A DNA stretch of 48,770 nucleotides, filler included, from Dirinaria sp. TL-2023a (GCA_051941275.1; 2 parts of 2 records of this genome joined end to end with filler, not necessarily neighbours in it); one strand, 5' to 3'; shown: positions 9,826-48,770, counted from the first letter of the whole stretch. The notes: generated by a model from the sequence alone, not told the origin. Numbers and translations: made by a program.

Positions 9826-12800
9826 ATGGGAGAATACTCTGTTGGATTTCAGCGCGCTAGCATTGGCTTTACAGATGAGGGCAAGCAGAACATACGCAAC
9901 ATACCAGAATTAATTGATTATAACGCTAAGTTCAATCCCGACCACCTCTTTTGCGTCCAGGCCCAGAAGGCGTTGAACGATGGTTCCGCAGGCTTGCTCT
10001 ATGTTACTCACGGTCAGCTCAAACAAGCCATTCTCTGTTGTTCACGATGGCTTAAATCATTTTTGGATGAGCTGGCCCTTCCTAAAGCAACAAAAGAAGG
10101 CGTTGATAACCGCAAAGGTCCCCCAATCGCTCTACTGCTCGACAGTGACATCAATCTGCTTGTTCATGTATATGCTTTGATCAGCCTGAGTGTGCCTGTA
10201 AGTAAGGTCAGGGCGGTAAATCTAATGTAATATTAAGCTTAGAGTAAGACAATAGGCGCTTCTGCTCTCCGCACGCCTTAGTCCTGCCGCGGCAAGACAC
10301 TTGCTGGACAAAACGTCAGCTCGAGCGTTAATCCATTCGGCTCGTCTGGCATATACAGCAAAAGAAATCCGTGAAGAGTCTCCCAAGCAAGATGACAGCC
10401 AGATCAAGTTTCACACGGCATATGACTATCATGTCTGGTCCAACTCAATGAACGATGGCATTGATGAGAACCAAAGCATTTGCGTCTCGAATTTTGACGG
10501 AGGGGATAGCGATAGAAACGTTCTGATACTCCATTCTTCGGGAACGACAGGGCTACCAAAACCAATTTATACATCGCACAAGTATCTGCTTTCTTTCCTG
10601 ACATGTCACGCTTTCGACTCTGAGGAGTCGGCTAGCCATTTAAATTTATCTACACTTCCACTCTATCATGTGAGATCAATTGGATACACCAACTCGTCGA
10701 AAACGAAGCTGACAATAGGTTGGCAGGGATATGGTCTTCTCGCGCCAGCCTTGTCTTTAGGGATAGGCAAGACCTTCTGTATACCCATATCCTCCGTCAG
10801 TCCAACAGCCGCCTCTATACTCCGCTTGCTTGACTCAGTGAGTGCTCGATGCATGATGAGTGTCCCATCTATCCTGGAAGAGATCGCTAGTCTTCCAGAC
10901 TCAACGGGAGTGCAGAAGTTGGGTAAGCTTGATTTCGTCGCTTTTGGAGGCGGCAATATGAAGCCTGCGGTTGGGCATGCTCTGAAATTGGCTGGGGTCA
11001 AATTGCTCAATCACTTTGGCACTACGGAGAGCGGACCTCTGGCTCCGATCTTTATCCCGGGTTCCGATTATGACTGGCAATACTTTCGGCTTAGACGGGA
11101 TATTGAGATACGGGTCGAGCCCGCTTCGACATCGATTAGCAAGTTCAAATTCATCACATATCCGCCTGGATGGAACGGACCTTTCGAAATTCAAGACGAG
11201 TTCGTGACTAGTCCACAGAACCCCATGCTCGATTACCAACCCGTTGGCCGAACAGACAGCGTGATCGTCCTCGCCACAGGAGAGAAGATACAGCCTAACA
11301 TTCTTGAAACAGCGCTGAGTGAGCATCCACTGGTTATGGCAGCAGTGGCATTCGGCGATGGTCACTTTCAAATGGGTGTCATCGTACAACCTTCACAGTC
11401 GACGCCATCTGAGTGCTTCGAGGATTTTAAAGGGAGAATCTGGCCCACGGTGCACGAAGCGAACGAGCGTATGGATTCACATGCTCGAATTGCTTCCAAA
11501 GATGCTATCATTATTGTGCCTCACACCACGCCACTTCCTAGATCTGATAAAGGCTCTCTGCTGCGCAGAGAATTATATGCCATGTTAAGGTCTGAGATTG
11601 AACAGATGTATCAGCAGCTTGAATCTGCAAACTCCGTGGCCATGCTTGACCGCAATCGCGGCATAAAAAATCAACTGAAGGATCTCATACAAGACAAATT
11701 ACCCAAATGGAATGTCCCGGCACAGGACTGGACATTTTCGAGCGACCTTTTCGAGTTGGGAATGGACTCTCTACAAGCAATTGAGCTTCGACGTCTGCTG
11801 CTGCCAAACATTGAATCTGCAAGGCAAGTTCCTAGAGACTTCATTTACCGCCACCCGTCGGTCATGGAGCTTGCAGAAGCTATTGAAGCTACGTATCGCG
11901 AACAGAAATTCGATATATTAGTAGAGTCTCGGCAAGAGCTGGTTGACGGTTTTGTTGAGCGATTTAGCCTCCAGACACCGAAAAGGGATTTTGTAATCCT
12001 GTTGACAGGTAGCACAGGTAGTCTTGGAAGCCATGTCCTTGTCCATTTGGCAAGCCTTCCGATGGTCAAGGAGGTCATCTGCCTTATTCGTCCTACTACT
12101 AACCGGGATGGAAATACTCATGATAGACAGGACGAAGCTCTTCGAGACAAGCTCCTGCCGTCGTGCTCACCAGAGTTGCGCCTCAAAATCACCACAATAC
12201 AAGCAGTACTCAGTCATACACAGCTAGGTTTGACATCAGAAGAATACGACTCAATAGTCCGGCGGGTCACACATATTTTGCACACTGCGTGGCCAATGAG
12301 CTTCAAGTGGCGACTCTCGTCCTTCCAGTCACAGTTTCAAACGGTGCAAAATTTGCTCAGGATGGCCTTGGATGCTCGCGACGGTAGAGGAGACACGCGT
12401 ACTCGCAATCGAGTGAGATTCGTCTTCGTCTCCTCAATTGCCGTGGTAGGCGAATATCCAAGTTCTCGCAAGACTTATTCCGCTGTGCCAGAGACGCACG
12501 TAAGTGATATCACCTGTACAAACCAAATTGGATACGCCGAAGCAAAGCTAGTATGCGAGAAAATAATTGAGCGCGCGCGAGATAGCTTTGCTCCGGATCT
12601 TGAGGCATGCTGCGTACGCATTGGGCAGATGTCTGGTTCCCAACAGAGTGGGTTCTGGAACACAGACGAGCACATCGCCGCACTACTCAAATCTTCCATA
12701 GATATCGATGCCTTACCAGAGCTTGAAGGAGTGAGTAATTGTTCCACAACCCTGGATCTCCATAGCCATGTATGATTCTAATATCTGCCCAGACCCTCTC

Positions 12801-13392
12801 CTGGCTCCCAGTCGATGTTGCAGCCGCGGCTCTCTCCGATATATTGCTCTCACGAACAACGGAAGCGTTTACCGAAAATGAAAGCAGACACCAACCGCTT
12901 TCTCCAGTTTACCACCTCGAGAATCCTATCCGCTGGCCATGGAAGGATGTCTTCCATGTACTAGCTTCGAAAATCGTGCAAAAAAGTGTGAACCACGGTT
13001 CCCAATTGCCCTTCGTACCGTATCCGACTTGGCTAGATCGTATAGTACAGCTAGGGGAATCAATCGCCAATGGTGATGAAGGAGCTGCTGATGGCGCTGT
13101 GACGAGGAAGAATGCAGATGCCATACGACTTCCAGGCCTAGAAACGGCAACGACGCATGTGAGTACGAATGTGCGAAAGAAGACCCGCCCAGCATACGAA
13201 CTCGTCGACTTCTTCGCTGCAGACTTTCGACGGATGGCCTGCGGCTCGGTCGTTCTTGACACGCGCCTGGCTTTGGAAGCTTCAGCTTCCCTCCGAGCAT
13301 TTGCGACGACGGCCGACGATGCTGCCGTCAGGGACAGGATGCTGGAGGGCTATGTGGATTATTGGTATCGCTGTGGTTTTCTCGCGCCATGA
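9826..13392 (+). CDS. NRPS-like A-T-R enzyme (aryl-carboxylic acid reductase type), 4 coding exons
   Basis: A domain: LHSSGTTGLPKPI, FGTTESG, GRTDSVIVLATGEKIQP, LPRSDKG. T domain: DLFELGMDSLQA. R domain: LLTGSTGSLG, GYAEAKLVCE, RIGQMSGS. Introns at ~10198-10255, 10670-10726 and 12731-12792. Confidence 0.95.
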
Positions 13393-14217
13393 TTACCGCA
13401 GGGGGGACTCACCATCTTAGGCACTGTCGAAGAACCATCAATCCTTCGCTGACGCTCTGCTGACTTCAAACTTGCTATGCTTGTTGTACTTATCAGAGTT
13501 TTACTATGAGTTACCCCATTCTTTACCATTTTGTAGAGGTTAGAGAAAAAGGGCATTTTGTTCTCATTCGCGTTTGACCAGCAGGTCATTTTGATAGACA
13601 TCAGTCCACGCTGAATAAAGTACATACACTCTGAAATGAGAATGCTATAGAAACCAGTCTCATTGCTCTAGATACTTCTGTAAATTTTTCACTATTTCTT
13701 GTATCGAACGTGTTGAAAACGGCCTTAGCATAGGGCTGAGCCGAAGATTATCCAACCGGCCCGAAGTCAGACCGATGCATAATATCGACCATGTTGTTTA
13801 CCTCTATGCAGGCTAGCATAGATTTCTGTGATTTCTTTCATTATCCTTGCCTTTATGGCAACCTAGGTAGACGAGCATCTAATGCCTATACGGGAGCCTC
13901 GTTATGCCTTTAGGCAGATTACCAATAGTCAGCGTTGTTGAATGCTGTGTCTAATAGAACGCCACGATAAGTGACATGTTCTCTTTACATACGAACGGTT
14001 TGTCTTCAATTTTGTTGATCGCGCTAGCTCTACGACTGTCCAACACTCAAGCATTTTGGGCATTCTTGTGCCAGCTTTATACCCCCAAAATGAGCTCTTT
14101 TTCCAGAAAGACCCATGATTCTCCCATCGCCGCAATGCAACTGATCCCGCACGAATCTTAAAAATCAAGAGTCATGCGTTGTGTCATCTTACCGCTGCAG
14201 TAGAATCATTTGGAAGC

Positions 14218-15702
14218 TTACTGCCCGTCTTGATGTGGGGCCACTCCGTCTCTCTCTCGGACTTGAGGCCTCTCGAACCTCGCCTCGATCAACGATACAG
14301 CACTACCCTTGGGAGTTCTGGTGCCTAGGAATTGATACCCCTGGCCAACGGTGGTGAAGAGCTTTCGCCAATCGGAAGCTGTTCGCTCGAGAGAGTTCCA
14401 GCCAGTTGCCTGTATCATGTCCAGGTTCCTAATGTTGACGCAAGAAGTCAGCATGGTTGCTTTCTATCTATCCGTGTTAGGATTGAATAAGGTACTGGCC
14501 TTTTCTGCTTTTGAGTCCAAGATGTGTTGGCTACCTCATCTGGCAAAAACTCATAGATCACCACCCTCGAGCCGTTCTTCATGGCTGGGATCAGTCTCTC
14601 CAAGATTTGTGCTGCGTATTTGTCGGCCCAGTTGTGCAGGATGAAGCGAAAGAAGTAGACATCAGCATGCTTGGTCGGTTGCTCTGCAAAAAAATCGTGG
14701 GCTACAAATTGGACGCGACCCTTGAGCTCGGATGGTAACAGCTTAACGCCTTCGGCAACAGTACCTTCCAAATCTTGGACAACAAATCTCACGTGCTTCG
14801 TTGCGCGAGCGAGAGCTTGGCTTACTCCGCCATGACCTCCGCCCACATCAACAACACAGGCCCCGGGAACATCCAGAGCCTTCCAGTCGTAGGCGTTGAT
14901 GAGATGCTTAATGTCATAGAGGCTGCCTTGCGTCATGAATCTCATCCCTCCACCAAAACGACGTGATCTCTCCGAGTTGCGAGCTAACCGTTGGTAGAAA
15001 GGGTCTGATGTCTGTTCTGCAATATTAAACCCAGTCTCGGTCGGTTCACTGGACTGCGGCCATTTCTGCATAGCCTCGAGCACGTGTACAGATCCTGGCG
15101 CAATGTCGTCCAATAAAAATCCGACAGTATCCTGCATGCCTTCGCTTCGCTTCAAGAGAAGTGAAGCTGCGCTATGGCTTACGAAGCCTGGGCTTGTCTC
15201 TTGGAAGAATCGATTGATTGCAGCATGTTGCACGAAACGGCGGACTAGTGTTTCATCGAGACCGCTGGAACAGGCCAGTTCTGAGTAGGATACAGCACCA
15301 TCATCCGGCACGTGCATGGCCAGCTGGTAATGATATATGAAACGGAGACTGAGAGCATCCGTGAACTACGAGTACATCCGATTAATCTTCCGGAAATAAC
15401 GCAAAAAAAACAGCGGAAGAAGCTAAGCGCGCAGTAATCATTTAAGGCTTTATGTTCAGGGGTTGGGAATCGCTCACGTTGAACAGAATTTCATAAAATT
15501 GGCCAACCGGTCCGTTTCCGAGTTGCTTCAGGTTTTGGCACCCATCCACAAACTCCTTTCGGCATTCTTCCACATCTTCGGGCAAATCAGATAGCGTGTC
15601 GCGATCAAATGAAGAAGACGGAAGGCCTTTACTAGCGGTGAAAGCGTCTAGACGCTTCGCTAGGGCGAGAATTCCTTCAGCTTGTTGAGTCAACGACGCC
15701 AT
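14218..15702 (-). CDS. Second SAM-dependent O-methyltransferase, 3 exons, ~433 aa
   Basis: Exons 15702-15478, 15365-14500 and 14428-14218. Motifs VVDVGGGHG, VVQDL, VAHDFF, ILHNWAD, NSLERT. The second intron needs a GC donor. Confidence 0.92.
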
Positions 15703-16327
15703 TTTACATCTAGTCTAACTACGCCGGTGGGCCTGGCTCATGTGAGACTTATAACTATCGTGATCTCGTGGTCACCTAGCTTTTGAGCGCCCCAGGCGCG
15801 GGCGAAATCATGCCCAACGAAAATGATCCCGCGGACCTGCGTGCGCTGACTCAGAACCAATGGCGGATTAGCCGAAAATTACCTGACTTTCAACCTGGGC
15901 CTTAGACCCTTACGTCCGTACAGCCTCGTGTTGTGGCCAGATCTGCTGCCAGGCATGCTGCAAGATCGTCGGAGTTTTTCCTGCAGTAGGATCCAAAGTG
16001 GACGCAGGAACAGCGTTAAGCTTTCATGCAGTCCAGTCGCACGTGTTCTCTGCGGACGTGGACCATCAGCCATTCCTGAAGGCTTTCTGAATCCTACGCT
16101 TCATATTGAAGACTGCTGAGGATTGAAACAAATGACCCCCAAATACGAAAAGTGCCTCGAGCTGACCCGAAGAGGCGTTATGGTTGCAACCTTTAGCCCA
16201 GGCGGAATGGCAATGAAGCGGCAAAGCTCGGCCACAGATTCGAGCAATTCTTGTGGAGCAAAGTTATAAGAGCAGTGAGTTTTCCTGGATTACTATGTTC
16301 GAATGGTCCACGCGGAGCTCAGCTAAT

Positions 16328-18389
16328 ATGACAGGCATAGTAAGGAAGATAGTAAAGGCTGCGACTCTCGCTAGTCTCTTCTATTCTAGTTGTCAAGCCC
16401 GACGACTGCTGGGCTCATCCTTCGGCGGACCAGGTAATGTAACTTACGACTATGTCGTAGTCGGTATGTCATGGGTTTTATGATTTGTCCTGGAATGAAG
16501 TGGACTAATGCAGGTAGGCGGAGGAACTGCGGGCCTCGCCATCGCTACTAGGCTTGCGCAAGGCCAGCATACTGTGGCTGTCATTGAAGCTGGCAGCTTC
16601 TATGAAATAGGAAACAGCAATTTCAGCCAAGTTCCCATCTACGCTGCCGCCTTCACAGCCAAATCACCCTTGCAGAAGTCTCCTCAGGTTGACTGGGGTT
16701 TCGTTACTACTCCTCAGCCGGTGAGTAATACTTTTTCCGGCGCTAAAGCTCGGCGATCACTAATCGATGAGTCGTTAGGGCTTTGATGGCCAATCGCCCC
16801 TGTATACACGTGGCAAATGCCTAGGAGGTAGCTCGGCAAGGAATTATCTATCCTACCAGATTGGTCCCAGTAGCTCGTATGATCTATGGGCGCAATTGGT
16901 CGAAGACGATGACTACAGATTCCACAACTTCCAGCGATACTTCCAAAAAAGTCTTAAATTCACACCACCTTCGAACTTGCGGCCTGCTAACGCGACTCCT
17001 TCATACGACGCAGCTAGTCTTGGCAGTAATTCTGGGCCTCTTTCTGTGGCGTTTAGCAACTACGCAATGGCTTTTAGCTCTTGGGCCCGCCTCGCGCTGG
17101 ACCAGTTAGGCTTTCCACGCATCAGAGGTTTCACCAGCGGCAACATTCTTGGACAGTCATACCAGCTTTTGACGCTCAACGCGACGAACATGGAACGAGA
17201 CTCCTCTGAAACCTCCTTTCTGCAGAAATTGGGCTTGTCTAATCCAAATTTGATTATCTATCCGTCAACTTTGGTGAGAAAGGTACTTTTTGACGCGAAC
17301 AAGAAGGCGACTGGTGTCATGATAGATTTTGGAGGAGAGCCATTCTTGTTGTCTGTCAACAAGGAGGTGGTACTTTCAGCAGGCGCGTTTCAGTCTCCAC
17401 AACTCCTCATGGTTTCCGGAGTTGGCCCCAGTTCCACGCTGAGAGTGTACAACATCCCAGTCGTTGCTGACTTGCCAGGAGTTGGGCAGAACATGTGGGA
17501 TCACGTGGTGGGGGGGCCCTCTTACAGGGTCAACGTACTTACCACTACTGAGCTCAGCATCAACCCTCGATTCGAATCTCAAGCTGTAGAAGATTATCTC
17601 TCCCAACCGCCTAGCGGCATGCTCACAGATGGCGGATCCGACTTGCTAGGTGAGTCTTTCACATCCTAGAAGGGGGTTTCCTTACTTGTCGGTTAATATC
17701 GTAGCGTTCGAGATCCTTCCGAACCGTACTCGTAGGCCGCCATTCCAGCAGAACGTCTCCTTTTCATCGGACTGGCCTGATGTTGAGTACATCTTCACAT
17801 CTGCTTTCCTGGGTAATCTCACCACGGGAGCACAGCCTGTGGACGGGTACAACTATGCCAGTATCTCCATGGCCCTGGTGGCACCCTACTCCCGGGGCAA
17901 TGTCACCATCAACTCTGCAAATGCGGCGGAACCCCCCGTCATCAACCCCAATTGGCTCACTGACCCCCGTGATCAAGCAACCGTCATCGCAGGCTACAAG
18001 CGTGCAAGGCAGATTTTCCAGAGCCGTGCGATGGCTCCCATACTGATAGGGAACGAGTATTTTCCAGGAGCTGCGGTGCGAAGCGATGCGCAGATCCTCG
18101 ACGTCATCAGACAGAGCTTTACTACGGTCTTCCACGCTTCGTGCACGTGCAAGATGGGCGTCAAGAGCGATCCCGCGGCCGTTGTAGACTCCAAAGCGCG
18201 TGTCTTTGGAGTTTCAGGCTTAAGAGTCGTGGATGCTTCATCATTCGCGGTGTTACCTCCCGGTCATCCTGTCTCTACAGTTTGTAAGTACAGCCAGCAT
18301 TCGCGCTCAAGATGTCGGAGGAGGGGCTGACTGTATGCGCAGATGCACTTGCAGAGAAAATTGCTGCGGACATCCTGAGCGGGAATTGA
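16328..18389 (+). CDS. GMC (AA3) flavin oxidoreductase with a signal-peptide-like N-terminus, PatE/PkfF-like
   Basis: RRLLGSSFG..YDYVVVGGGTAG across an intron, VIEAG, GKCLGGSSARN, SAGAFQSPQLLMVSGVG, VGQNMWDH, catalytic VFHASCTC and PPGHP. Last exon ALAEKIAADILSGN*. Confidence 0.93.
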
Positions 18390-19136
18390 GGACGAACATA
18401 GGGAGGAGTAAAGGAGTCGTTTGATGAACAGAACGCGAGTGGTTTTTCAGCGTATGTACGAGTACTGTAAGCAGGCGTCGGGAGAAACGGTAGGGTGAAA
18501 GGGTTTTCCATTCTGACTACATGTATTACTGAAGTTTCTGTACATCAATAGCAGTCGTCAGCCACCAAGTTTTCAAATAAATCTTATAAATCAGTGGGAA
18601 ATCGGAAATCGTACCATCGGAATCATGTTATTCGGGTACGCTAGCAGGGGCGATCTGCATCAAGCCATGCAGATTGAAGTGCGAGGAGAAACAGGTATGG
18701 AGTGCTTCCTTCCTTCCTCCATCTTTCACCCATACGTACATTATCACTGTATCTTGGCTGCCTAAAGCAAGGTCCGTAAGGTCGGGAGGGGAAACCCCAA
18801 TTAGGTAATTATCTCCTACTCACACTCTCCCGCTGAACGGACTTAACTGATGTGGTGCGCAGCCTTTGTCGGCAATCCGCGTCCAAAATTGCCTGTTTCG
18901 GCACTTTTATTAAGTCCGAGCTCCGAGCAAGGGGAAAAAGTATCCGAGTCAGCCTCTAATGCACATGTCAAACTCAGGTCCATTTACTATCCCAATGTAG
19001 CTCTCTAGGTTGAGCATGACGTGAAGTTCTCCTCGAGCACACCGTCATCATCATCATCACCACAACCGCTGTCCAACACGCATCTCGCCTTCTCCCCCTC
19101 GCCATCTCAAATTCTTCTCAACGCCCATTCGAGATC

Positions 19137-20347
19137 ATGCCTCCGCCATTTGATCAGATCTTTCCACCCTCCCCAACTTTCACGGAACATCATGCCGGCG
19201 ACCAAGGCGGTCGGGTGTTCTTGATCACCGGAAGCACCTCCGGAGTCGGCTTCGAGCTTGCTAAACTGCTTTATGGCCTGAACGGAACCGTCTACGTCGC
19301 AGCGCGCTCCCCGGAAAAGATTAAGCAAGCCATTAAATCGATCAAGAGCCAAGTTCACACCAAGGCTGGCCGCGTGGAAGCGTTGGAGGTGGATCTGGCG
19401 AACCTGGCATCGATCGGGCAGTCGGCTCGCGCATTTCTCGCAAAAGAGGACCGGCTCGATGTCCTTGTGCACAATGCCGGTCTTATGACGCCCCCGGCTG
19501 GCAGTAAAACAAACCTAGTGAGTTTTGAAATCGTTGCCGCACAGCGTATCCAGACCTGGAGGCTCACTGATGATGGGGTGGTAGGGACATGATCTCGAAA
19601 TGGGCACGAACTGTCTCGGGCCTTTCCTCTTCAACCATTATCTTGAGCCGACCCTCAAGAAAACGGCGGCATCGTCGGAAAACCGCCTTGGCGTCCGAAT
19701 CGTCTGGGTCGCATCAATGATAGCCGCGTCGGTACCAAAAGGCGGCATCACGATGAATAACGACGGAAGCCCCAAGGTCATCAAGGTACGCAAACGTAGA
19801 AAGAAAAATCGGTATGCGCACAGGTACTGAGGCTAGTAGAACGCGATGGAGAATTATATGCAGAGCAAGGTCGGCAATGTCTTCCTGGCCAAAGAGACGG
19901 CTCAGCGCGTCGACAATGATGGCATTATAAACGTGGTAGGTTCACCGAAAAGCCTGCTTTGGGATATCAGCATCAACTGATGACGTTCAGAGCGTGAATC
20001 CAGGACTGCTGAAGACGGGGCTGCAGCGGCATGTTTCGGCCCTTCAACGCATGATAATGGTAGGACGCGACCCTCTTCCTGTCCTCTGGATACTTGTCCA
20101 CCTTCTTAGAGCCTTTGTGTCTGATCCCTTCCATCAGAATCTCATGTTGAAAGACCCCAAATACGGCGCATACTCGGAGTTGTTTGCCTGTCTCTCGCCC
20201 GAGGTCACCCGCCAGGCCGGCAGCCCCTTCATCCTCCCGTGGGGTCGCTTCGGCGAGATTCCGGACCATATTCAGCAGAGCATTGATGAAGGAAAGGCTT
20301 CTTCTTTCTATCACTGGTGCGACCGAGAAACCAAGGCATATCAGTAG
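19137..20347 (+). CDS. Short-chain dehydrogenase/reductase (retinol-dehydrogenase-like), multi-exon
   Basis: Motifs ITGSTSGVG, LVHNAG, MGTNCLGPF, catalytic NYMQSK, VNPGLLKT and FILPWGR. Confidence 0.92.
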
Positions 20348-21201
20348 GGACGGGGACGGGTTTGGGGTCTGAGTACGGATGCATGCAAGTTACAATCAGC
20401 ACTTTAGCAGGCGCAGTAAATAGGCCACATCACATAATACCCAATTTTTGCGAACTGATGGATTCCCTGCTTTCGCGGAGATTCTTGGGTTTGTGAGTTT
20501 GTCGGGTAGCTTGTAGATTTCCGATTCCGATGCAAAATCCCCCAGTCGACAGCACGTGACCATTGAATCCGTCCTCCCATCTTGGTTTAGCTTCATTACC
20601 GGCAACTTTACCATACATGTATACAACGAAGCGAAATCTCAGTGCCAAGAAATCACTGTAATTTTTTGAAAGTCGACGTCATACCCTGTAAGACCTGTGA
20701 AGGGTGATGCATGCAGAGACCAAGTCGTTCAGCGAGTGCAAATCATTAGTGCAGTGATGCTCTTGGGTGTCTCCCCAGGCCACTATCCTATGCGATCCGG
20801 AGGACGACCGATGGATACCATGGACAGTAGTATCTGCCCTGCAGGTCAATGCGCGCGCACACGCAATGCTGAATCAAGACATTTGCCCCTGATCAGGCCA
20901 AGCACTCCAAACAGATCCGGATGGTAGACAATCACCAATCAAACCGTCGTCCGTGAGTTTAGTCAATCGATCGAACAATCTACGGAAAATGTCTGAGGAA
21001 TTCCGGTGTCTGTATGAACGAGGCCGAAGCAGGCTGGATGCAGATACGGACCTGCGTGGGTTTACTCGCGCCACCAAACTTTCAATGCTCGTTGCCTGTT
21101 CGCCATACTGCATTGAAGCTCTTAGTATTGCAGACTTATGATTTCCCTGGGTATGACATGCTCATCATCTGTTGTGTCTTGCAGTCTCGCTCTTGTGTGA
21201 A

Positions 21202-23062
21202 ATGCAGTATCTGAGTCTTGGAGCGCCTTTGGCTGGCATCTTGTTCGTCTTGTTCTGGGTCTTCCGGTCGTTCTTCAAGCTCCGAGATGTTCCTGGGCCA
21301 TTCCTGGCATCGTGGACAAATTTTCCCCGTTTGTGGTGGGTTCTAAGCAACCGGGCTCATGACATCCATATCCAGCTGCATCGCCAGCATGGAAAATTGG
21401 TGCGATTTGGCCCGAACATGGTGTCAATATCGGACCCCGCGGAGATCCCGACGGTATACGGCTTCAGCGCGGTTTTTCAGAAAGTAAGCGACCGTTGGCC
21501 TGGGTCAGGTTGGTTTTCAGAACTGATTTGACACGGCATAGTCCGATTTTTACCATGTCCTGCTTCTTTACGCCAGAGGAAAGCCAGTACCTACGATTTT
21601 TGCAACACAGGATGAAGGTTTGCACCGAACCTTACGGAAGCCCATTGCTGCCATGTACAGCATGAGTCAGGTGGTTTCATTCGAATCGCAGGTGAACTCT
21701 ACAATGGACTACTTCTTCCAGCGCCTGGACGCCTTATTCGCCGACGGGAATGCGGTCTGTAATTTGGCATTCTGGCTTCAAGCTTTCGCATTTGACGTTA
21801 TAGGCGAAATTACCTTTTCAAGGCGTATGGGATTTCTCGAGAAAGGCAAAGATATAGAGGGCATCATGGCGTCAATCTGGAAATACTTCTTTAGAGCCGC
21901 CCCAGTAAGTTCTCTATCTAACGGCTGTGTCCCTCCATCCTCTCTGCATCGGATGTGCAAAAAAGTTCTCTGAGCATACATATACTTAATACTGTCAAAA
22001 TCAAAATGCAGCTTAATGTCAAATCTCACAAAGATTCAATTCTTAGGTAACCCAGATGCCATGGTTGGATCTAGTATGGACCAAAAATCCAATAAAACAG
22101 CGTCTGCGCAGAGCTAAGCCAAACCCGATTGTGGCCTTCGCAACCGCGAGAGCCCAGGAGCGACAGAGTCAGATGGAGAAAGCCCCATCCGCTAAACAAG
22201 CTGTGGAAAATAAAGACTTCCTGTCTCGATTTCTTGAGGTGATTCAAAAGGATAAGCAAATTCCGCCTTTTGCACTTACCGCCTGGACTACGTCCAATGT
22301 CACTGCCGGTAGCGACACAACAGCTATTCTCCTTCGCTCTATATTCTACAGCCTCATGCGGCATCCTCAGTCCATGCGTTGTCTGCTTGATGAGATTGAT
22401 CAGGCTGCACAGGTAGGCGCGCTCTCTCGGCTGGTGACCTGGAAGGAAGCTCGCGCACTTCCATACCTTGATGCGTGCATCAAGGAGGCCGCTCGTCTGC
22501 ATCCCCCTTTTGGGCTACCTTTTGAACGGGTCGTGCCTTCAGGAGGCGCAACTATATGCGGTCGCCGCTTCGCAGCCGGGACTGTCGTTGCTATACCTGC
22601 GTTCGTTGTCCATCGAGACGTGGATACTTTCGGCGGCGATTCTGACGAGTGGAGGCCTGAGCGGTGGTTTTGTGAAGAGTCCAAACGGCGGCGTATGGAG
22701 AATTCGATGCTTACTGTAAGTGAAGGACCCAAGCTCTGCCCTTGGAGTGCCGCTAGTTGAATTGAAATGGCTGATAAGTTGTGCCGGCCCCTTTAGTTTG
22801 GTGCGGGCCATAGAGCTTGCTTAGGGAAAAATATCTCTTACCTTGAGATCTACAAATTGGTGCCGAGCATGTTGAGGAAGTATGAGGTGAGTCAAATGCA
22901 GAGGGGAAAGACAGCAGCAATGCTGTTGACTGATGATGACTGATATTCGTCGCACAGATTACCTTTGCAAACCCAGCCCAGCAAGAGTGGGTGGTGAAAA
23001 ATCGATGGTTGACTCACCAATCCAATTTCAATGTGAAACTACGGCAGCGGGTGGTGGACTGA
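21202..23062 (+). CDS. Cytochrome P450 monooxygenase (MpaD/CicH/PkfB-like), 5 exons; start codon uncertain
   Basis: N-terminal TM segment, then VPGP, VRFGPNMVS, FAFDVIGEITFS, AGSDTT (I helix), KEAARLHP (ExxR), WRPERW, heme FGAGHRACLG (~22797-22826). Last exon ends RQRVVD*. Confidence 0.93.
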
Positions 23063-23580
23063 GATGGATCTTGGTACCATCACGCTTGTAGGACTGGCTT
23101 GTCTGAGGGGATCTATCCCATACCTCGAAAAGGTGTGCTTTTCAAATGTAGAGCTCGATAGGGCAATGTCTTTCATACCTTCTTATCCGCTATGCGCGTT
23201 TCACGAAGCTACCACGACGCTCTTTATCGACTTGAAGACTTTTTTCCCTGGGTTTGAATACCTAATGCACTGGCTGTCGTTCTATGTAGTAGCTTTTTTA
23301 GAATTACTAGAAGCTAGTACGTGTATTCTTGCTAGTGGTATGGAATGCAGCAGGTCAGGTAACGACATTCGGCGCAGACAAAAAATTTCTTGAAAGGTAT
23401 ATGGGTTATGACAAATCCTTTTTCATAAGGATATACCTAGCTAACCCTTGGTTCACCGCTATGTTCGCCTTCAATAGGGCAAGTCTCAAACGGCAAAACC
23501 CTTGATCCATCAACGGAAAATGGCTGTCCCAGTATCATCAATTCCTTCAATTGATCGTCCAAAAATCTCAACCCGTTCCC

Positions 23581-24246
23581 TCATTCATCCTTACCCTTCT
23601 TCCCATACGAATGGGCCATCCTGTTCAGCATATGCTTCTCCACCGTCAAACCTTCATCCTCCTCACTCCCATCCAACGCCTTCAGCTCACAGTCTAGATT
23701 CCCATCAAAGAAGAAAACAATACTATACCTCTCTCCCAGGCCCTTATGCACGACCCGGTGCAAGCTACTCTTGTACCTCCCGCCCGTCCACTTGCTCAGC
23801 ATATCCCCGACATTGACCACGTACGCATCCGGGTTCGGGGTTATCTGCACCCAGCGCTCCTGGAGCGCATCGTACACTTCCAAGCCGGGGTTCTCGTCCG
23901 TGAGAAGGAGGGTGACGGCGCCGAAATCGGTGTGCGCGCTGGCCCCGAACTGGGGCTTGCTGGTCGCGGCGGTGGCGGGAGGGTAGTGCAGCAGGCGCAG
24001 GGGCGCGGCGGGCGTGTTGGAGACGAATTCGTCGAAGATGTCCGGGCCGTAAGGGAGTGAACGCGCGAGGAGCGAGAACACCGTCAGGGTCAGCGAGTAG
24101 ATGGCGGAGTAGTAGCGCTCGCAGGGGGACCGGAACTCGTCGGCGGAGAGATGATGTTCCGCTGGCCAGACGTTGGGACCCATGAAGAAGCGCTTGGAGA
24201 GGGTACGTGGATCGTTGGGAGGAATGTCGGCGCCGATGTAGAAACC
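23581..24246 (-). CDS. 2-oxoglutarate/Fe(II) dioxygenase (IPNS-like family); only the last exon is visible, the 5' part is lost in the gap
   Basis: Acceptor ccag|GGT at 24246 opens GFYIGAD..GPNVWP, LRLLHYPP, AHTDFG (HxD), VVNVGDML, SSLHRV and RYS. Confidence 0.88.
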   Translation of the reverse strand, partial: GFYIGADIPPNDPRTLSKRFFMGPNVWPAEHHLSADEFRSPCERYYSAIYSLTLTVFSLLARSLPYGPDIFDEFVSNTPAAPLRLLHYPPATAATSKPQFGASAHTDFGAVTLLLTDENPGLEVYDALQERWVQITPNPDAYVVNVGDMLSKWTGGRYKSSLHRVVHKGLGERYSIVFFFDGNLDCELKALDGSEEDEGLTVEKHMLNRMAHSYGKKGKDE

Positions 24247-24346
24247 CTGGGAGAGGGACGTGTCATTATCGTTAACTTCTGGGCGTGAAGCTCATTCTCA
24301 AATTGATTCTACGGGCGATTGCTGACAATATAAACAAGGGGAGAGG

Positions 24347-24446
24347 NNNNNNNNNNNNNNNNNNNNNNNNNNNNNNNNNNNNNNNNNNNNTTAATTAATT
24401 AANNNNNNNNNNNNNNNNNNNNNNNNNNNNNNNNNNNNNNNNNNNN
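24347..24446. other. Assembly gap or contig linker (N44-TTAATTAATTAA-N44)
   Basis: Exactly 100 nt with a central self-complementary all-frame stop spacer at 24391-24402. G/C homopolymer-rich ends flank it. Confidence 0.97.
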
Positions 24447-24535
24447 AAACCCCCCCCCCCCCACCCCTCCGAAATGCGGCTTTCGTCAATTACATAGGTA
24501 CCTCCAACAGCAAACAAACAAAATCGATTGTAAAA

Positions 24536-25887
24536 CTACGGCCACCAACCCCTCTTCTTATAGCTCTCAACCACTTCCCGGACTTGCTCCACGCCCAAGC
24601 GTTCCACCTGCAGAGACCACCCCAGCTCCTTGGCCGCCTTCGCGCGATTGAGACACAGGTCGCAATCCTTGAGGAGCTCCTTCTCCATGAAGGGGCTCAG
24701 GGGCCCGCTCTCGGCGATGCCCTTTTCCTTGAGCAGGTCCGCCCACGGCTGGAGGATCTCCTCGTTGACGTCCTCGACGACGGAGTCGAGGTTCAGCTTC
24801 GCAAAGGACGAGATGAACGTGTTCTGGAAGCCCGTCTTCAGCTCGAAGATGTTGCTGAACAGCGTCGCCAGCGTGCCCTGGCTCGTGTCACCCGCGTCGA
24901 CGATGTTGAAGGCGCGGTCCGCCGCCGTCGTGGCGCGGGAGGGCGCATGTTGCGCGCACCACGACGCTGCGGCCCAGGCCGCCGTGCATACGTCCGAGAT
25001 GTGCACCGTGTTCACCCGCAGGTCTTTGCCCCACAACCACTTCAGTTCCTTGCCCCGGCTCTCGTATACCCGAGCGAGGCACAGCCCCCGAGCCAGGAAG
25101 CCAACGTCGTAGGGACCGTAGACGTGCGCCAAGCGCAGAGTTGCGTAGTGCAGGTCCTGCTCTTGGGCTAGTTTCTCCAATCCTTCTTCGGCTTGAAGCT
25201 TGTATTTCGCGATCTTGAGCCATGGCTTGTAGGTCGATGTCTCTGAGCAGCCGCCGGCGGAGATGGTGGAGGAAGACGGAGGCTTGTAGACCATGCCTGT
25301 GGAGAACTCGATCAGGGCGGGGGTTTTGCGGCGCGCGCATTCGCGGGCGAGGTTCAGGGACAGGGCGAGGGAGCGGGCAGAGTAGACGGATTCGTCCTGC
25401 GAGTAGCGGGTTTCTCCGCCGCAATTGAAGACATAGGTGTATTCTTGAGCCGTCTTCGGGGTGAAGATCCGGGAGAGGGATTCTGTTTTTCCGCCACCAG
25501 GCGTTTCTTAGCTTCACCCTAGGTAGATTTGTTCTCGGAGTGTAGAGGGCGGAGATAGCGTACGCTCACGGCTGGCATCTGCTTGCATGAATTTGTCCTG
25601 CGAGCATGCTTCGGAGAATTCAGGCGCAAGGCGCGCGAGTTGTGGAAGGACCTTGTCCACCAGGCGAACTTCGGACGCAAGGTTGTTCTGATGGATGTGC
25701 AATGCGAGGAAGCGTCCTACGTAGCCTGCCATTGCGTATATATAAGTCAGTCATGTTGATCCACTTCGAGATGGAAGCACAGGATAGTACCAAGACCTCC
25801 AACGATCAGCACCGCAGGTTTGCCCGATGTGGATGATCCTGGCGCCGACGTCGACGGGACACTGTCCTCCTTCGAGACTGCTGCCAT
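24536..25887 (-). CDS. NAD-dependent epimerase/dehydratase family protein, 3 exons
   Basis: Spliced N-terminus KPAVLIVGGLG|YVGRFLA (Rossmann GGxGxxG), then FNCGGETRYSQ, STGMVY, LRLAHVYGPYD, NTVHISDV. Confidence 0.9.
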
Positions 25888-43273: not shown

Positions 43274-44979
43274 TCCCTTGAAATTGCGTTTCCTTTGCTA
43301 CGTCAACTGGTTTTGTAAGCGATGGCGTCGGTGGAGCATTTCAATACCCTTTAAAAAAGCGGATCTCAAGGTAGTTTTGGGGTTAGAATATTAGCATCAC
43401 GATGGACCAACAGTGAACATCGGACGAATCTAATGTATTTTTTGACAAACAATTTTGGGAGCCAATAATAGCTGATGCTGTTGAGCATCGTGGCTTGCAA
43501 TGGTAGAATGAGGTCTTGCCGGCAAGGCAGGCACACTACCTTAGGGTTTACATGTTGAGTGACCAATTAGATTCTAGGGTTATTTGAGCCCGATTCTAAG
43601 GAACCTCACGCTCATGCTCTCTCTAGATCGACTTGCTCAATTCATGCTACCTATTTTGAGTCAACGAAATGATACCGAAGCTACCTTAAGCGACCCTGGC
43701 ACTGGCAGCCCGCGGCAACTTGAAAACCTTCAGCAGTGGCTAGTCTTTACAGTAGCAGCTCCAAACCTTCACTCTCCTACTGTGAAAAGACCAACCAATC
43801 AACCAGAACCAAGTTGTTGCTCATGTGTTTAACGTTTTGAGTCACCTGATGTTGAAAACCCGCAAGGGGTTGATTGTTTCTGCGTTTAGGCAAGAACTGC
43901 ACACCGAGTCATGGAGGTTCCCGTGGCCCGTTATCAAATTATCAACATTGGAGGCGCGCCGCAAGAGCAACCGCTGCCATCGTTAGCAGCTTCGGTTGCG
44001 AGCTGTCCTTCGCACTTACCCATTGCTGAGGTTTAGGCTTTCTGTTTCCGACAGCTGGTGTAGTTAGGGAAGACGAGTTCATCGAAGAGTATCGTATCAC
44101 TTTGAGCAAAAGCAAATCCCAGGCTATGACACGGCTCTATGCAGGCAATGCTTCAACACTTCTAGGCCTGCAGAACGAGGAGTGAAATCTCCATTGAGAT
44201 GGTTCAAACCATTTCTCGAATCATACGTGCTGATCCGTTTTTATTGTCCCTAGGGCAGAACGTTGTATGTGATGCGGAAGGTAGTCATATCTACAACTAC
44301 ATGCATAGCAGCCAAGTGATGTGTGAGAGACGAATTGGCCGGCATCAGTTGGCTGTATAGTCATACTATCCACAGCCCATTACGCTCCTAGCACAGGGTC
44401 CGGAAAATAAGTTGAAGGTATTTATTGTTGAGTCTAACCAGGTTTTTTGTTCCCTAAACATCTTCGCGGTTACTAATCATCAGTAAAGAGACACATTTGA
44501 AAACATTATAGCTATGCTCAAGCTGGCATCTAGACCTTGAAGGGTCCTGGTCATTCGCGATGTTTCTGGTTGGCCGCTTGCTCCCAATGGCTTCTTTGCG
44601 GAAAGCGTTATCATGTGGAAACAGTGCGCAGACAGTTGCCCAACTTCGCAGTCGAGCGGCTTGATATGGCTAAACACATGGACCATTATTGGGGACTTAA
44701 GTCGTTTGGATGAAATTTATTAGTGGAATGCAGACAGTTTGTTGCCGCACACGGAGAATGTTACTACTCCAAAATAGCAGGAATGTACGCGTCAAACGCG
44801 TCAATAGCTATTTATGAGGAAAGACTCCATATACTCTATTATCAGGTTTATTTCATGCTCTTTTTCGTGTCCAAAAGATCTCGTGCAACCTTCGTTGCTA
44901 CTGTTTTTCCTCAGTATTCTTATCGACGCCTTACGTAACTGCTGTTGTGTTCAAGCAGTAGCGCGTTTTCGAAGAAACC

Positions 44980-47900
44980 ATGCAGTGGCTTAACGCTGCC
45001 CTCGCTGTGCTCGGGCTTACATCCACCGTTCTTGCTCAAGGTAGCGTTGGTGGAGATCAGTCAGTCTGTTCCGCATCGCAGGATTTCACTTATTCAGGCT
45101 GCTACGGCGACGACCAAAATGGGCGTCACGCTGGTTTCAATTGGCAATTCAGTACAAGCTCGACGGATGTGAAAACTTACCCAGGGTGGAACGGCTCAAT
45201 GACTGCAGTGTATTGTCAAACGGTCTGTCGTGGTCATGGTTTCAAATATGCTGCAGTCTATGGGAACGAATGCTATTGTTCACCGACATTCCCACCGCCA
45301 ACCATTACCGGCTCCACCTCTTCGGGACCAGGCGCACCAGCCGGCAATGCTCCAGGTACTACAACTTCAGCTGGAGCGTGTGCTTCCCCTTGCCCTGGTG
45401 ATTCATCACAACAATGCGCTGGAGGAGGTGCTGCAGCAGTCTATTCTGACCCTTCGTTCACGAGCGCCACAACACAAGCCGGAAGCGCGAGTAACTACAA
45501 ATACTTTGGATGCTATGACAATCAAAATCCCGGTCCGATGTTCGTGAGCTCTCTCTCAACAACCAGTACTGTGAACTGCGTCAACTACTGTGGCCTGATG
45601 GGATATCCTTTTTCGTCTCGCTCCGGTACTGACAGCAACACCGGTTCGACCTGTGGTTGCGGTAGCGAGATCCAGTCCGGTGTCCAGCTTCCAGAAAGCA
45701 GCTGCAACGCATATTGCAATGGCACTATGAACGCACAGTAAGCTCTCTTCTCAGCCCTCGGAGGATCTTGCATACCTTGCTGTATTTTAGTAGGACTGAC
45801 AGGGGAATCAGGGGAGGTGCATTCGCATGCGGTGGCAACGGCGCTTACTCAGTCTTCTTAAATACCGAGCTTCAAGGCTGTTACAGTCCGAGATACCCTG
45901 GGACTGACGCTACTCACACCTATGTCGCTCCGGCAGATGCAGGCGTGGCGCCAGATGCGGACTCGTCCTCAACTTCATCGGTGAGCTACTTTCAAACTTC
46001 TGAGTGGCCGATATACTTTGGTGCTAGGCCCTGTGACAATTTTAGAGAACCCAATGCACTTGCGCTGCAGCTTTCGATGCCACTTTCAAGCCCGTGCTAA
46101 CTTGAATTCCTCAACAGGGCAGCTCTTCCTCAATTGGAACGGTAAGCATGCAACCAAGCTCTTCCGCGTGATGCAGATTCCACATCCTTCCTACGTCGTG
46201 CCTCAGCTGTGGATGCTCAGTAGATAATCCATATTACATTTAGTCTCCTCTAGTAGCGAGGCTGGTTGCAGTCGCACAGAGCTCGTCCTCGTCTGGTTCT
46301 ACCACCTTGGCGCCGGCAAGCTCTACAGTAAGTCCTTGTCCACCCAATGTGTGGAACGAGCGTAGGGACGAGCCTAATATCATCAGCGCAACCTCCTTCC
46401 AACTTCTGTTGCATCCTCTTAAATTCTCCAAAGAGCAATGCTGATAACAGTTTTAGAGTGATTCAACTTCGTCGAGCTCTGCCACTGCCTCACCAGTGGT
46501 GACAACAGGCACCACAGCCGTAACATCCGTGATTACCACGTGCGTAAACCTTTTCTCAAGATATTTCCAACTGTTCATCAGTTCGCCGAGTAATGCAATC
46601 CGCTTTGGAACTGGGGTTGGACGTTGAATGAAACTCGCTAAATTATGTTTACTCTAGGACGACGGTCGTGTCTACTACGAGCGTATACACTACCCAGACA
46701 TCGTCCACAACAGTCGTATCTAATAATGAAGTTTATGTCACGAGGACCGTCACCACGCAGGTCAGTACTGCCCCAGAATTCTTAGAGTGGTGCTGTTCTG
46801 CAATCTTGGGCTAAATCGAGTCGGGCATCGCAGCAAACGGTTACCACAACCATGCCAACCACTGTTACAGTGACAACCACTACAACTTCTTTGTCTACCA
46901 CTACTGCAACTGTTCAGACAACTGAAAGCGAATATTTTACGACGACGCAGGGCGTCACGAGGGAACCGACAACGACGTATTTCCCACCCCAATCCAATGC
47001 TTCAAGCTCAAGGTGAGTTTTTGATTTCACTGGGTGGGAATAAAGTAGGGAATGCTAATTTCATTCTTGAAAGTACAAAAACAAGGCATGGCTCTCCGTC
47101 TATCCTATATTTTGGGTCGAATAGACATTAACGTGTATTAATCATAGCTCAACATCTTCGACAACCACAAGTTCCACGTAAGACCCACATCATACATACC
47201 TGCCTCACTCGAAGATTGCACTTACATGCTTTGCAGATCTTCTTCTTCAAGCTCCTCCTCAAGGTGAGTTGTATCTACCACAATACAAGATCGATCATGC
47301 TAAAAAAATGAAGTAGCTTGCTCAGCCTGCCAACGAGTATATTAAACTCGACATCTCCAACCTCGAGTTCCACGTAAGATCCACCTTCATACGTACCTGC
47401 CTCATCCGAAGATTGCACTTACATACTTAGCAGATCTTTTTCGAGCTCCTCCTCAAGGTGAGTTGTTTTCCACATAATACATGACTGATTATGCTAAAGA
47501 GCTGAAATAGCTTGATTAGCCTGCCTACAAGTATATTAAGCTCGACATCATCAACAAGCACGAGCTCCACGTAAGATCCGCATCATGTGTATCTACCTCG
47601 CTCGGAGATTCCACTTACATGTTTTGGCAGCTCTACCTCTTCAAGCTCTTTCTCAAGGTAATCGTATCCGCCATAACACAGGAGTGATCATACTAAAAAG
47701 ATGGAATAGCTTGTTTAGCCTGCCAACGAGTATACTAAATTCGACATCTTCGCCAACCACGAGCTCCAGGTAAGATCCACTTCATGCATACCTTCATCAC
47801 TGTATTTTCCACTTACATGCTTTAGCATTTCTACTTCTTTGAGCTCCTTCTCGAGGTTATTTGTGTCCGCCATAACAAAGGAGCGACCATGCTAAAAAAT

Positions 47901-48645
47901 GGAATAGCTCGATTAGCTTGCCAACAAGTATACCGACGTGCGTAAATGGCCTACTGCACATTCTAATCTTAGCTAACGCTTCATCACAGGACGTCGTCGA
48001 CAAGATCCTCAAGGTACGAACCATCCTCGAGCAACCGGCGGGGGGGGGAAGGCCCGAAGCGAAGTACATGATTAGGGATTATTAGTACTGATAACATGCA
48101 ATAGTTCTTCGACAATAACTACGCCAAAAACAACTTCTTCAAGGCGCGTAGCTTTCTCGTCTCAGCTCGAGCTTCGCTTCGCACGGGATGCTGACCAGGT
48201 TGGACAGCTCTTCGTTGTCTTTATCTCCAATCATCTCAACCCCGACGACTATAAGTTTAAAGTAAGTTCACGATCTTTTATCCAGACTACAACGCTATCT
48301 CACCCGGTACACACTAGCTCCACGATCAGCTTTAGCACACGCTCCTCCACGACCCCCTCCACGAGCTCCAACACCACCTCCTCCTCCACTTCTTCCACGA
48401 CCAGCTCCACCAGCTCCAGCTCTTCCACGACCAGCAGCTCCACGACCAGCTCCACCACCTCTTCCACCACTTCTTCCACCACCACATCTCCCAGCATCTC
48501 CAGCATCTCCAGCATCCTCTCTCCTTCAGCCTGTACCCCGCGAACAGTGACCATCACAACCATAGAAACAGTAACCATGAGCAGCAGCAGCGGCAACAGC
48601 AGCCCCAACAACGCATTATCCCTCCGGCGCCGACAGACGGCATAA
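44980..48645 (+). CDS. Secreted protein with two WSC-like domains and a mucin-like Ser/Thr tail, ~21 exons, ~730 aa
   Basis: Signal peptide, then WSC-like Cys patterns (YSGCY..MTAVYCQTVC..YAAVYGNECYC..CASPCPGDSSQQCAGG; YFGCY..CVNYC..CGCG..CNAYCNG..CGG). All hand-called exons stay in one stop-free S/T-rich frame to TAA at 48643-48645. Confidence 0.82.
47148..47937 (+). repeat. Four diverged tandem copies of a ~197-bp unit (intron A - exon - intron B - exon)
   Basis: TCCA(C/G)|GTAAGA recurs at 47178, 47374, 47571 and 47770 (spacing 196, 197, 199). Each unit has CACTTACAT, CTC(A/G)AG|GT, CTAAA..TAG|CT and TGCC..AGTATA. Confidence 0.93.
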
Positions 48646-48770
48646 TTAAAAAGAATCAAATTCTAAACAGACCGAAAAATTCTGGAACTTGTGTTTTGAA
48701 ATGAGGGGTTGATGCTCGATGTTGCTGTTGCTGCTTGAGGACGTAGGTACTTTATTACTTTTTACAAGGG

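Follow-up and report, generated by a model that had tools for sequence, protein, structure and literature searches.

We analysed a window of 48,770 nucleotides (nt), filler included, from Dirinaria sp. TL-2023a (GCA_051941275.1), made up of two parts of two records of this genome joined end to end with filler, and focused on one WSC-domain gene on its plus strand at positions 44980-48645, counted from the first letter of the window. In our gene model the coding sequence runs from the ATG at 44980 to the TAA stop codon at 48643-48645 and comprises 20 exons and 19 introns, which gives 2190 coding nt and a predicted protein of 729 amino acids (aa). Fifteen of the 19 introns are in phase 2, with 13 consecutive phase-2 introns in the part encoding the tail of the protein. 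An earlier reading of the same DNA, hereafter the first-pass annotation, had described 47074-48261 as 13 successive micro-exons encoding a mucin stalk. The elements of the gene are listed below; L008 is a related locus found on metagenome contigs and P numbers are homologous proteins (both described further down), and a slash between AAG and GTGAGT or within a codon marks the exon-intron junction.

44980..45737, +, exon 1: carries the start codon and codes for the predicted signal peptide, the first WSC domain and the greater part of the second; phase 2 at its end; called from the open reading frame (ORF), Pfam and homologues
45738..45811, +, intron 1: phase-2 intron of 74 nt (GTAAGC..CAG) that interrupts the second WSC domain
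45812..45980, +, exon 2: completes the second WSC domain and opens the Ser/Thr tail
46118..46141, +, exon 3, putative: 24 nt, phase 0-0, picked by the splice-aware search; L008 is without a counterpart intron
46244..46327, +, exon 4: acceptor ambiguous, 46244 by eye and 46280 by the splice-aware search
46457..46539, +, exon 5: ends in phase 2, donor GTGCGT; intron position and phase common to L008; peptide like the tail of P0016
46658..46760, +, exon 6: position and phase (0) of the next intron common to L008
46834..47012, +, exon 7: conserved Thr-rich segment with the end ...EPTTTYFPPQSNASSS; phase 2, AAG/GTGAGT
47074..47085, +, proposed 12-nt exon: AAG acceptor, GCATGG donor; never chosen by the splice-aware search
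47148..47177, +, micro-exon, unit 0 A, 3' part: 30 nt, phase 2-2, donor GTAAGA; branch-like A of the next intron 12 nt from the 3' splice site
47237..47263, +, micro-exon, unit 0 B: 27 nt, phase 2-2, donor GTGAGT
47317..47373, +, micro-exon, unit 1 A: 57 nt, phase 2-2, peptide LLSLPTSILNSTSPTSSS; in-frame alternative acceptor 47326
47434..47457, +, micro-exon, unit 1 B: 24 nt, phase 2-2; tandem TAG/CAG acceptor at 47428-47433
47511..47570, +, micro-exon, unit 2 A: 60 nt, phase 2-2; in-frame alternative acceptor 47541
47631..47657, +, micro-exon, unit 2 B: 27 nt, phase 2-2; weak donor GTAATC
47710..47769, +, micro-exon, unit 3 A: 60 nt, phase 2-2
47826..47855, +, micro-exon, unit 3 B: 30 nt, phase 2-2; donor GTTATT very weak; of the exons in the repeat this one is the least secure
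47908..47937, +, micro-exon: 30 nt, phase 2-2, donor GTGCGT; begins with 25 nt that represent a fifth, truncated exon A
47990..48013, +, micro-exon: 24 nt, phase 2-2, donor GTACGA; branch AGCTAACG before it
48105..48143, +, micro-exon: 39 nt, phase 2-2, non-canonical donor GCGCGT
48208..48261, +, micro-exon: 54 nt, phase 2-2, consensus donor GTAAGT; branch TGCTGACC before it
48318..48645, +, last exon: Ser/Thr repeats, then the conserved end ...ACTPRTVTITT...LSLRRRQTA and the stop codon TAA
47148..47932, +, tandem repeat: 199-bp period, 4.0 copies, 78% matches; from Tandem Repeats Finder, repeat families and alignment A1

The product of exon 1 matched the WSC family in Pfam (PF01822) in two stretches, with an E value of 2.7e-12 and 47.2 bits versus a cut-off of 27.8, and this places the array in a WSC-domain gene, as had been proposed. 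The WSC cysteines are invariant across alignment A2, which was also used for the contig scan below. The peptide at the junction of intron 1 matches P0010, P0014 and P0016, and the position and phase of this intron are as in the L008 model. The predicted N-terminus, MQWLNAALAVLGLTSTVLAQG, is hydrophobic and was taken as a signal peptide, as judged by eye and by hydropathy. From about residue 300 to the end the model consists of 64% Ser and Thr, which corresponds to a tail of about 430 residues. The Kyte-Doolittle mean over 19 residues peaks at 1.44, which is the signal peptide, and the next peak is 1.26; by hydropathy the model protein has no transmembrane segment, with the window ending 125 nt past the stop codon and a further exon being conceivable. 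A hydrophobic C-terminus of the glycosylphosphatidylinositol (GPI) type was not found either: the last 40 residues finish ...SSSSGNSSPNNALSLRRRQTA, and the C-terminus ...ACTPRTVTITTIETVTMSSSSGNSSPNNALSLRRRQTA is polar and basic. The term stalk implies an anchor, and this part of the first-pass annotation is not supported, as the model has neither a hydrophobic segment beyond the signal peptide nor a GPI-type end. We infer that the product is a secreted WSC protein with two WSC domains behind a signal peptide and a long Ser/Thr tail, which is presumably O-mannosylated. Nothing else appears to be encoded at this place. No sequence match to a solved structure was obtained at E<=0.01, Rfam gave nothing at gathering score in 44500-48770, and Pfam gave no match for the three longest minus-strand ORFs in 47715-48659 or for ORF 48076-48642.

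The 13 segments listed in the first-pass annotation are indeed all multiples of 3 in length (12, 30, 27, 57, 24, 60, 27, 60, 30, 30, 24, 39 and 54 nt). Joined to 46834-47012 and 48318-48645 they form one open frame, and all introns in 47013-48317 are in phase 2, including the one at 48262-48317 that follows the last listed micro-exon. It follows from these lengths and phases that any subset of the exons could be dropped without a frameshift. The coding signal also agrees with what had been claimed: the 12 exons that remain when the 12-nt segment is left out amount to 462 nt and 154 residues, 71% of which are Ser or Thr, while the other two frames of the same exons give 3-4% Ser and Thr with 3 and 8 stop codons. 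The 13 introns contain 12-22 stops in each frame and would encode 14-20% Ser and Thr. With regard to the splice sites, the 13 segments are followed by GT in 11 cases and by GC in two (47086 GCATGG and 48144 GCGCGT), and preceded by YAG in 12 cases, the remaining one being AAG at 47074. The 12-nt segment at 47074-47085, having this AAG acceptor and the GCATGG donor, is unsupported and was never picked at penalties 4-10 in the search described below. It was rejected, and most likely lies inside one 135-nt intron at 47013-47147. Apart from this first intron, those of the array measure 52-91 nt, and the micro-exons account for 462 of the 2190 coding nt, about a fifth.

To locate exons we used a splice-aware search, a purpose-written dynamic-programming gene finder with codon log-odds trained on the gene's four large Ser/Thr exons and with splice weights that approximate the ascomycete consensus. 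At intron penalties 4 and 6 the search recovered 12 of the 13 exons and the stop codon ending at 48645. At penalty 8 it dropped 47826-47855, and at penalty 10 it dropped 47826-47855, 47908-47937 and 48105-48143; exon 48208-48261 was kept at every penalty. Shuffle controls were run through the identical procedure. An open GT/GC-AG path to the last exon existed in all 200 of 200 dinucleotide shuffles of 47013-48317, so the existence of a path is uninformative by itself. The path log-odds were +65.8 bits for the real sequence, whereas the 200 shuffles averaged about -71 and reached -45.4 at most. The array is also unusually intron-dense for this genome. Strong intron-like sites, defined by a GTRAGH donor, a length of 45-70 nt, a branch-like motif and YAG, occur at 4.6 per kb in the array versus 0.22 per kb in the rest of the window, with six on the plus and one on the minus strand as compared to 0.18 +/- 0.41 (maximum 2) in 500 shuffles. 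It should be underlined that the six plus-strand sites are copies of two intron types and thus non-independent.

All 12 short introns in 47178-48317 have the form GT/GC..YAG, and in 11 of them a branch-like A precedes the 3' splice site by 10-13 nt, as compared to 12 nt in intron 1, itself verified by homology. Their lengths, mostly 52-64 nt, are close to those of five likely introns of neighbouring genes (55-63 nt, GTRAGY donors). The search favoured the in-frame downstream acceptors 47326 and 47541. These were set aside for the upstream ones, which are the first YAG after the branch and which add a pair of hydrophobic residues (LL, LI, LF) with none but conservative variation among the copies. 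Intron A of unit 1 ends in two acceptors, TAG and CAG, spaced by 3 nt (47428-47433), and use of the upstream one would add CAG, one extra in-frame codon. The intron at 48014-48104 (91 nt) is the sole array intron much above about 60 nt and has a run of nine G at 48040-48051 in the G-rich stretch cggcgggggggggaagg.

Much of the array consists of a 199-bp tandem repeat at 47148-47932 that the first-pass annotation had overlooked and that explains most of the regularity of the exons. Within each unit an exon A of 57-60 nt is followed by an intron A of 56-60 nt, and then an exon B of 24-30 nt by an intron B of 52-53 nt. The exon A peptide follows the pattern S-L-x-S-L-P-T-S-I-L-x-S-T-S... and exon B encodes poly-Ser, while intron A reads GTAAGA...CACTTACA...YAG and intron B ...TGCTAAA...TAG. 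Of the listed exons, eight are copies of exon A or exon B, as are the opening 25 nt of a ninth (47908-47937). Further copies of the unit or of either intron type were not found by blastn in the 48.8-kb window or in eight related loci. The motif [ILVF][ILVF]S[LI]P[TA][ST][IVL] of exon A is present in two of 162 homologous proteins (P0016 and P0107), or three if looser, a count of little weight, being too small and drawn from proteins that are mostly truncated.

The copies show the signature of coding sequence in the proposed frame. Exons are about 84% identical between copies and introns 77-81%. The pooled ratio of non-synonymous to synonymous differences per site (pN/pS) is 0.30 in the proposed frame (178 codon pairs; 57 differences synonymous, 48 non-synonymous), versus 1.03 and 0.92 for the same bases in the other two frames. 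Alignment A1, made on the genomic sequence of the three full units without regard to frame, has variable columns numbering 5/27, 6/27 and 11/27 at codon positions 1, 2 and 3 and 35/105 in introns (position 3 versus 1+2, one-sided Fisher p=0.048). Lengths tell the same story: across units the exons differ by multiples of 3 only (A 57/60/60, B 27/24/27/30), whereas the introns differ by 1-4 nt (A 59/60/60/56, B 53/53/52/52). Micro-exon 47317-47373 carries a 3-nt deletion relative to units 2 and 3, and the acceptor of exon B in unit 3 sits 3 nt upstream of its position in unit 2; the frame is kept in both cases.

We then considered the relatives of the gene. An exhaustive protein search with exon 1 gave 346 homologues at E<=0.001, the best with 56% identity, and a word-indexed search gave closer relatives with 85% (P0151), 70% (P0152) and, for another protein, 60% identity. 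Longer homologous proteins were not found at E<=0.001 among 7999 candidates, which is a weak negative. Many of the homologues are about 250-270 aa long, a length that is obtained when a gene caller halts at the stop codon inside the first donor site. Among 28 homologues examined, at least five long models (P0005, P0010, P0011, P0014 and P0024) have tails that look frame-shifted, with N, D, H, F, I and V in abundance, as in FNIVPNVFNIVPY and NDDNSTHNDDDNNTH. This suggests that the suspect tails are Ser/Thr repeats read in the wrong frame, and that mis-annotation is systematic.

A scan of metagenome contigs with alignment A2 gave eight loci, L001-L008. L001-L004 and L008 are mutually about 98% identical, L005 is 93.5% identical to them, L006 72-87%, and L007 is more distant. 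For L008 the splice-aware search produced a 14-exon model with 12 of 13 introns in phase 2, in which the conserved ...REPTTTFFP is followed by nine consecutive symmetric exons of 72, 15, 33, 12, 36, 75, 84, 15 and 30 nt. All its acceptors are CAG, and among the donors that follow the nine exons are two GTAAGT and one each of GTAAGC, GCAAGT and GTATGT. The model proteins of the window gene and L008 are 61% identical (368 of 599 aligned residues), and three intron positions and phases match exactly; three phase-0 introns occur in the window gene only and one phase-2 intron in L008 only. Exon 7 is strongly conserved both with exons 4-5 of L008 and with L007. Both C-termini consist of Cys-x3-TVT(I/V)T followed by a basic stretch, the L008 version reading ...CPPCTAQTVTVTA...KARARRAMV. 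The 199-bp repeat was not found in L008.

Comparison among the L008-like loci indicates that the predicted exons and introns evolve differently. In L002, L003 and L005 all five indels located in predicted exons relative to L008 are multiples of 3 (15, 30, 12, 12 and 12 nt). Those in predicted introns, six rows representing four distinct events (8 nt at 9164 in L002, L003 and L005; 1, 17 and 1 nt in L005), include no multiple of 3. Between the tails of L005 and L008, 27 of 520 exon sites differ as compared to 56 of 619 intron sites (p=0.008), and the exon changes fall on codon positions 1, 2 and 3 in the numbers 7, 5 and 15. At 6.5% divergence these two loci keep all 13 of 13 donor/acceptor pairs, with one donor hexamer changed from GTATGT to GTATGC. 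A fragmented tail thus appears to be real in at least one related lineage, and fast-evolving. Length polymorphisms of 12-30 nt, all in frame, lie inside Ser/Thr exons at L008 positions 9023-9071 and 10311, which points to natural variation in tail length through repeat slippage within exons. Conserved C-terminal elements lie at 48530-48645 in the window and at 10630-10757 in L008, each with a basic RRR or RARR a few residues before the stop; P0035 has a similar end (...CSGASTVTITASS) and P0021 loosely so. Upstream of the array, 45981-46456 holds phase-0 introns of 137, 102 and 129 nt together with exons of 24 and 48-84 nt, where L008 has one continuous exon; these introns would represent lineage-specific gain or loss within the Ser/Thr region.

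The uniform phase can be related to the composition of the tail. The codons split by the 13 tail introns are eight Ser (AG/Y), four Thr (AC/N) and one Asn (AA/C), and AG/C is split in six of the nine tail introns of L008. According to the splice consensus an exon normally ends in ...AG, and among the Ser and Thr codons only AGY contains AG. The exon-end consensus, imposed on sequence that codes for Ser and Thr only, would thus push an intron into phase 2: after the usual ...AG or ...AC, it has no place but the inside of a Ser AGY or Thr ACN codon. Where all introns share one phase, every internal exon is a multiple of 3. We infer from this that the symmetry of the exons needs no selection for skipping and that the phase bias derives from composition.

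Taken together, we consider it about 75% probable that the array is the real, constitutively spliced 3' half of one 20-exon gene for a secreted WSC protein, and that it grew by module duplication. In such a gene the twelve exons of 24-60 nt would provide 154 residues of the tail and be separated by ordinary short fungal introns (52-91 nt). Their uniform phase 2 would result from introns placed inside Ser AGY or Thr ACN codons and not from an exon-skipping design. The rise in exon number would have taken place at the DNA level, through about four tandem duplications of a 199-bp module with two exons and two introns, the copies having since diverged by about 16-23%, and this would have added about six to eight introns in this lineage. 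Most of the micro-exons are probably truly spliced.

Several observations weigh against this interpretation. Four donors are poor (47658 GTAATC, 47856 GTTATT, 48014 GTACGA and 48144 GCGCGT), and the exons upstream of them may be skipped or decaying. If the GTAATC or the GTTATT donor fails, read-through stops within 1 and 15 codons, respectively. The codon table of the search, trained on Ser/Thr exons of the gene itself, and its approximate splice weights make it lean toward Ser/Thr exons. The selection signal is modest (p=0.048) and comes from few sites, and pairwise comparisons of four to five related copies are non-independent. When MAFFT was run on the three full units with the protein as guide, the result was weaker, with 10, 10 and 15 variable sites (p=0.15); this alignment was discarded in favour of A1, as exon B was misaligned in it. 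The homologue evidence shows the architecture in a relative and not in the window gene itself, and the L008 model is in turn a prediction. Finally, L007 (47% identical in exon 1) has one continuous exon at the equivalent place, with at least 95 Ser/Thr-rich codons, so fragmentation of the tail is not general to the family.

For the 3' end of the gene an alternative was considered, in which 48105-48645 would be one unspliced terminal exon, or 48105-48143 would be non-exonic and bridged by an intron at 48014-48207. In the frame of 48105-48143, the ORF 48076-48645 stays open over the 58 codons that take in the last two introns of our model, which also counts against this model; moreover, the donor at 48144 is GCGCGT, and the penalty-10 search drops 48105-48143 and uses a 194-nt intron. 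Against these points, the peptide that read-through would give (RRVAFSSQLELRFARDADQVGQLFVVFISNHLNPDDYKFKV...) does not resemble the remainder of the tail, and both the consensus GTAAGT donor at 48262 and the consensus branch and acceptor at 48188-48207, if used, demand the proposed 48208-48261 frame. We regard a different 3' end as unlikely on this balance. Micro-exon 48105-48143 could be skippable, or an unspliced terminal exon could begin with it. The open frame at 48076-48645 comprises 189 codons running through the last two introns and one exon in another frame, and it may point to a retained-intron isoform or have arisen by chance, the odds of which are roughly 6% for 58 codons.

A further possibility is that the micro-exons are cassette exons, as the first-pass annotation had suggested, with regulated skipping giving Ser/Thr spacers of varied length in a fungal counterpart of the schistosome micro-exon genes. 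The removal of any subset without a frameshift would allow this, the weak donors at 47658 (GTAATC), 47856 (GTTATT) and 48144 (GCGCGT) are as in facultative exons, the acceptors 47326 and 47541 and the TAG/CAG pair 47428-47433 offer in-frame alternatives, and the splice-aware search drops one to three exons as the intron penalty rises. However, the uniformity of phase is already accounted for by Ser AGY and Thr ACN codons. The homologue conserves 13 of 13 splice-site pairs between variants, with length varying inside exons (12-30 nt) and not in exon number. Short introns of fungi are spliced by intron definition, the usual error of which is intron retention; the 52-64 nt introns of the array are typical of this mode, in which skipping is not the usual error. 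Tuning of length by splicing is therefore unlikely, and a system in which the weak-donor exons 47631-47657, 47826-47855 and 48105-48143 are condition-dependent and give WSC lectins spacers of graded length seems quite improbable. If true, the cassette array would be a convergent fungal counterpart of the schistosome micro-exon genes in which module duplication adds length steps over evolution, and an ongoing case in which introns are gained through the duplication of modules in a Ser/Thr-coding 'intron nursery'. It is still harder to believe in a decaying or mis-joined tail, in which the gene ends at the TGA at 47014-47016 and the downstream array is untranslated or degenerating with its splice-like sites as relics: the unspliced reading does halt at 47016, several donors are degenerate, and the low-complexity 48300-48660 is open in all frames on both strands, so that an ORF there proves little, but the copies have their synonymous excess in one frame only, their exon length differences preserve the frame, the region scores far above the shuffles, and the C-terminal motif at 48530-48645 is conserved with L008, whose gene needs a similar exon chain.

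The locus was compared with known systems, and it most plausibly belongs to the secreted WSC lectin kind, with putative glucan binding. Such lectins of fungi are represented by WSC3 of Serendipita indica (SiWSC3), and WSC proteins are enriched in the extracellular polysaccharide matrix of this fungus (PMC9252488, PMC9024836). Like SiWSC3-type lectins, the window protein has a predicted signal peptide and WSC (PF01822) and is without a transmembrane segment; its Ser/Thr tail of about 430 residues and its Cys/TVTIT/basic C-terminus do not appear in the consulted descriptions of these lectins. The Wsc1-type sensors are described as having a WSC domain, a glycosylated Ser/Thr region, a single transmembrane domain and a cytoplasmic tail (PMC9024836). 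The window protein resembles those of yeast in its N-terminal WSC domain followed by a Ser/Thr-rich region (64% Ser and Thr). In contrast to them, it has two WSC domains and neither a transmembrane domain nor a cytoplasmic tail, and is therefore not a Wsc1-type sensor. It also differs from GPI-anchored fungal mucins and adhesins in having no hydrophobic C-terminal signal, and the homologue likewise ends ...KARARRAMV.

Exon skipping is documented for schistosome micro-exon genes (MEGs). MEGs have secreted products and very short exons that are mostly multiples of 3 and hard to annotate automatically, with introns of 100 to about 5000 bp and with micro-exons making up most of the coding sequence (PMC10526429). 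The likeness to these genes put forward in the first-pass annotation stands in part, as the window gene has twelve symmetric exons of 24-60 nt and a predicted secreted product. It fails for the short introns (52-91 nt, the first 135 nt), for the 462 of 2190 nt in micro-exons, about one fifth of the coding sequence, and for sequence, in which there is no relationship; the likeness is thus only formal. Tandem or iterated exon-intron modules are known from animal genes for repetitive structural proteins, such as the 54-bp exons of collagen and the spider flagelliform silk gene. The window region similarly appears to be built from tandem exon-plus-intron modules with frame-preserving exons; the introns of the animal genes are longer, and the window module, from a filamentous ascomycete, packs two exons and two introns into 199 bp. 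Tandem duplication of exon-intron modules in such animal genes is, by analogy, probably the closest system mechanistically. The mechanism usually discussed for intron gain in fungi involves dispersed introner-like elements. These are near-identical, recent introns dispersed among unrelated genes (PMC4457414). In contrast, the copies in the window are strictly tandem and duplicated together with exons, as judged by the searches of the window and the eight loci. In the literature covered, which does not extend to subscription journals, no account of a comparable micro-exon or tandem architecture in a fungus was found; the arrangement is not claimed as unpublished, and it is related to known tandem module duplication.

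Genes of filamentous ascomycetes usually carry few introns, and a 3.7-kb gene with 19 of them is an outlier in this group, set further apart by the predominance of phase 2 and its unbroken run in the tail. It would provide a concrete and datable case of intron number growing in a fungus by tandem duplication of exon-intron modules. Since automatic annotation appears to fail on this family, secreted WSC and mucin-like proteins are probably under- or mis-annotated in fungal secretomes. The composition rule moreover predicts a genome-wide excess of phase-2 introns in Ser/Thr-rich coding stretches.

The neighbouring genes are of ordinary filamentous-ascomycete content: a fungal transcription factor, a nonribosomal peptide synthetase (NRPS)-like enzyme, an O-methyltransferase, a GMC oxidoreductase, a P450, topoisomerase I and ATP synthase gamma. 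The NRPS-like enzyme (AMP-binding, PP-binding and NAD_binding_4) lies at 10256-12775 on the plus strand, and the O-methyltransferase at 14448-15365 on the minus strand. They are followed by the GMC oxidoreductase at 16779-18330 (plus), the cytochrome P450 at about 21157-22760 (plus) and an epimerase/dehydratase at 24536-25507 (minus). Together, the neighbouring genes at 9775-25507 in the window may form a secondary-metabolite cluster.

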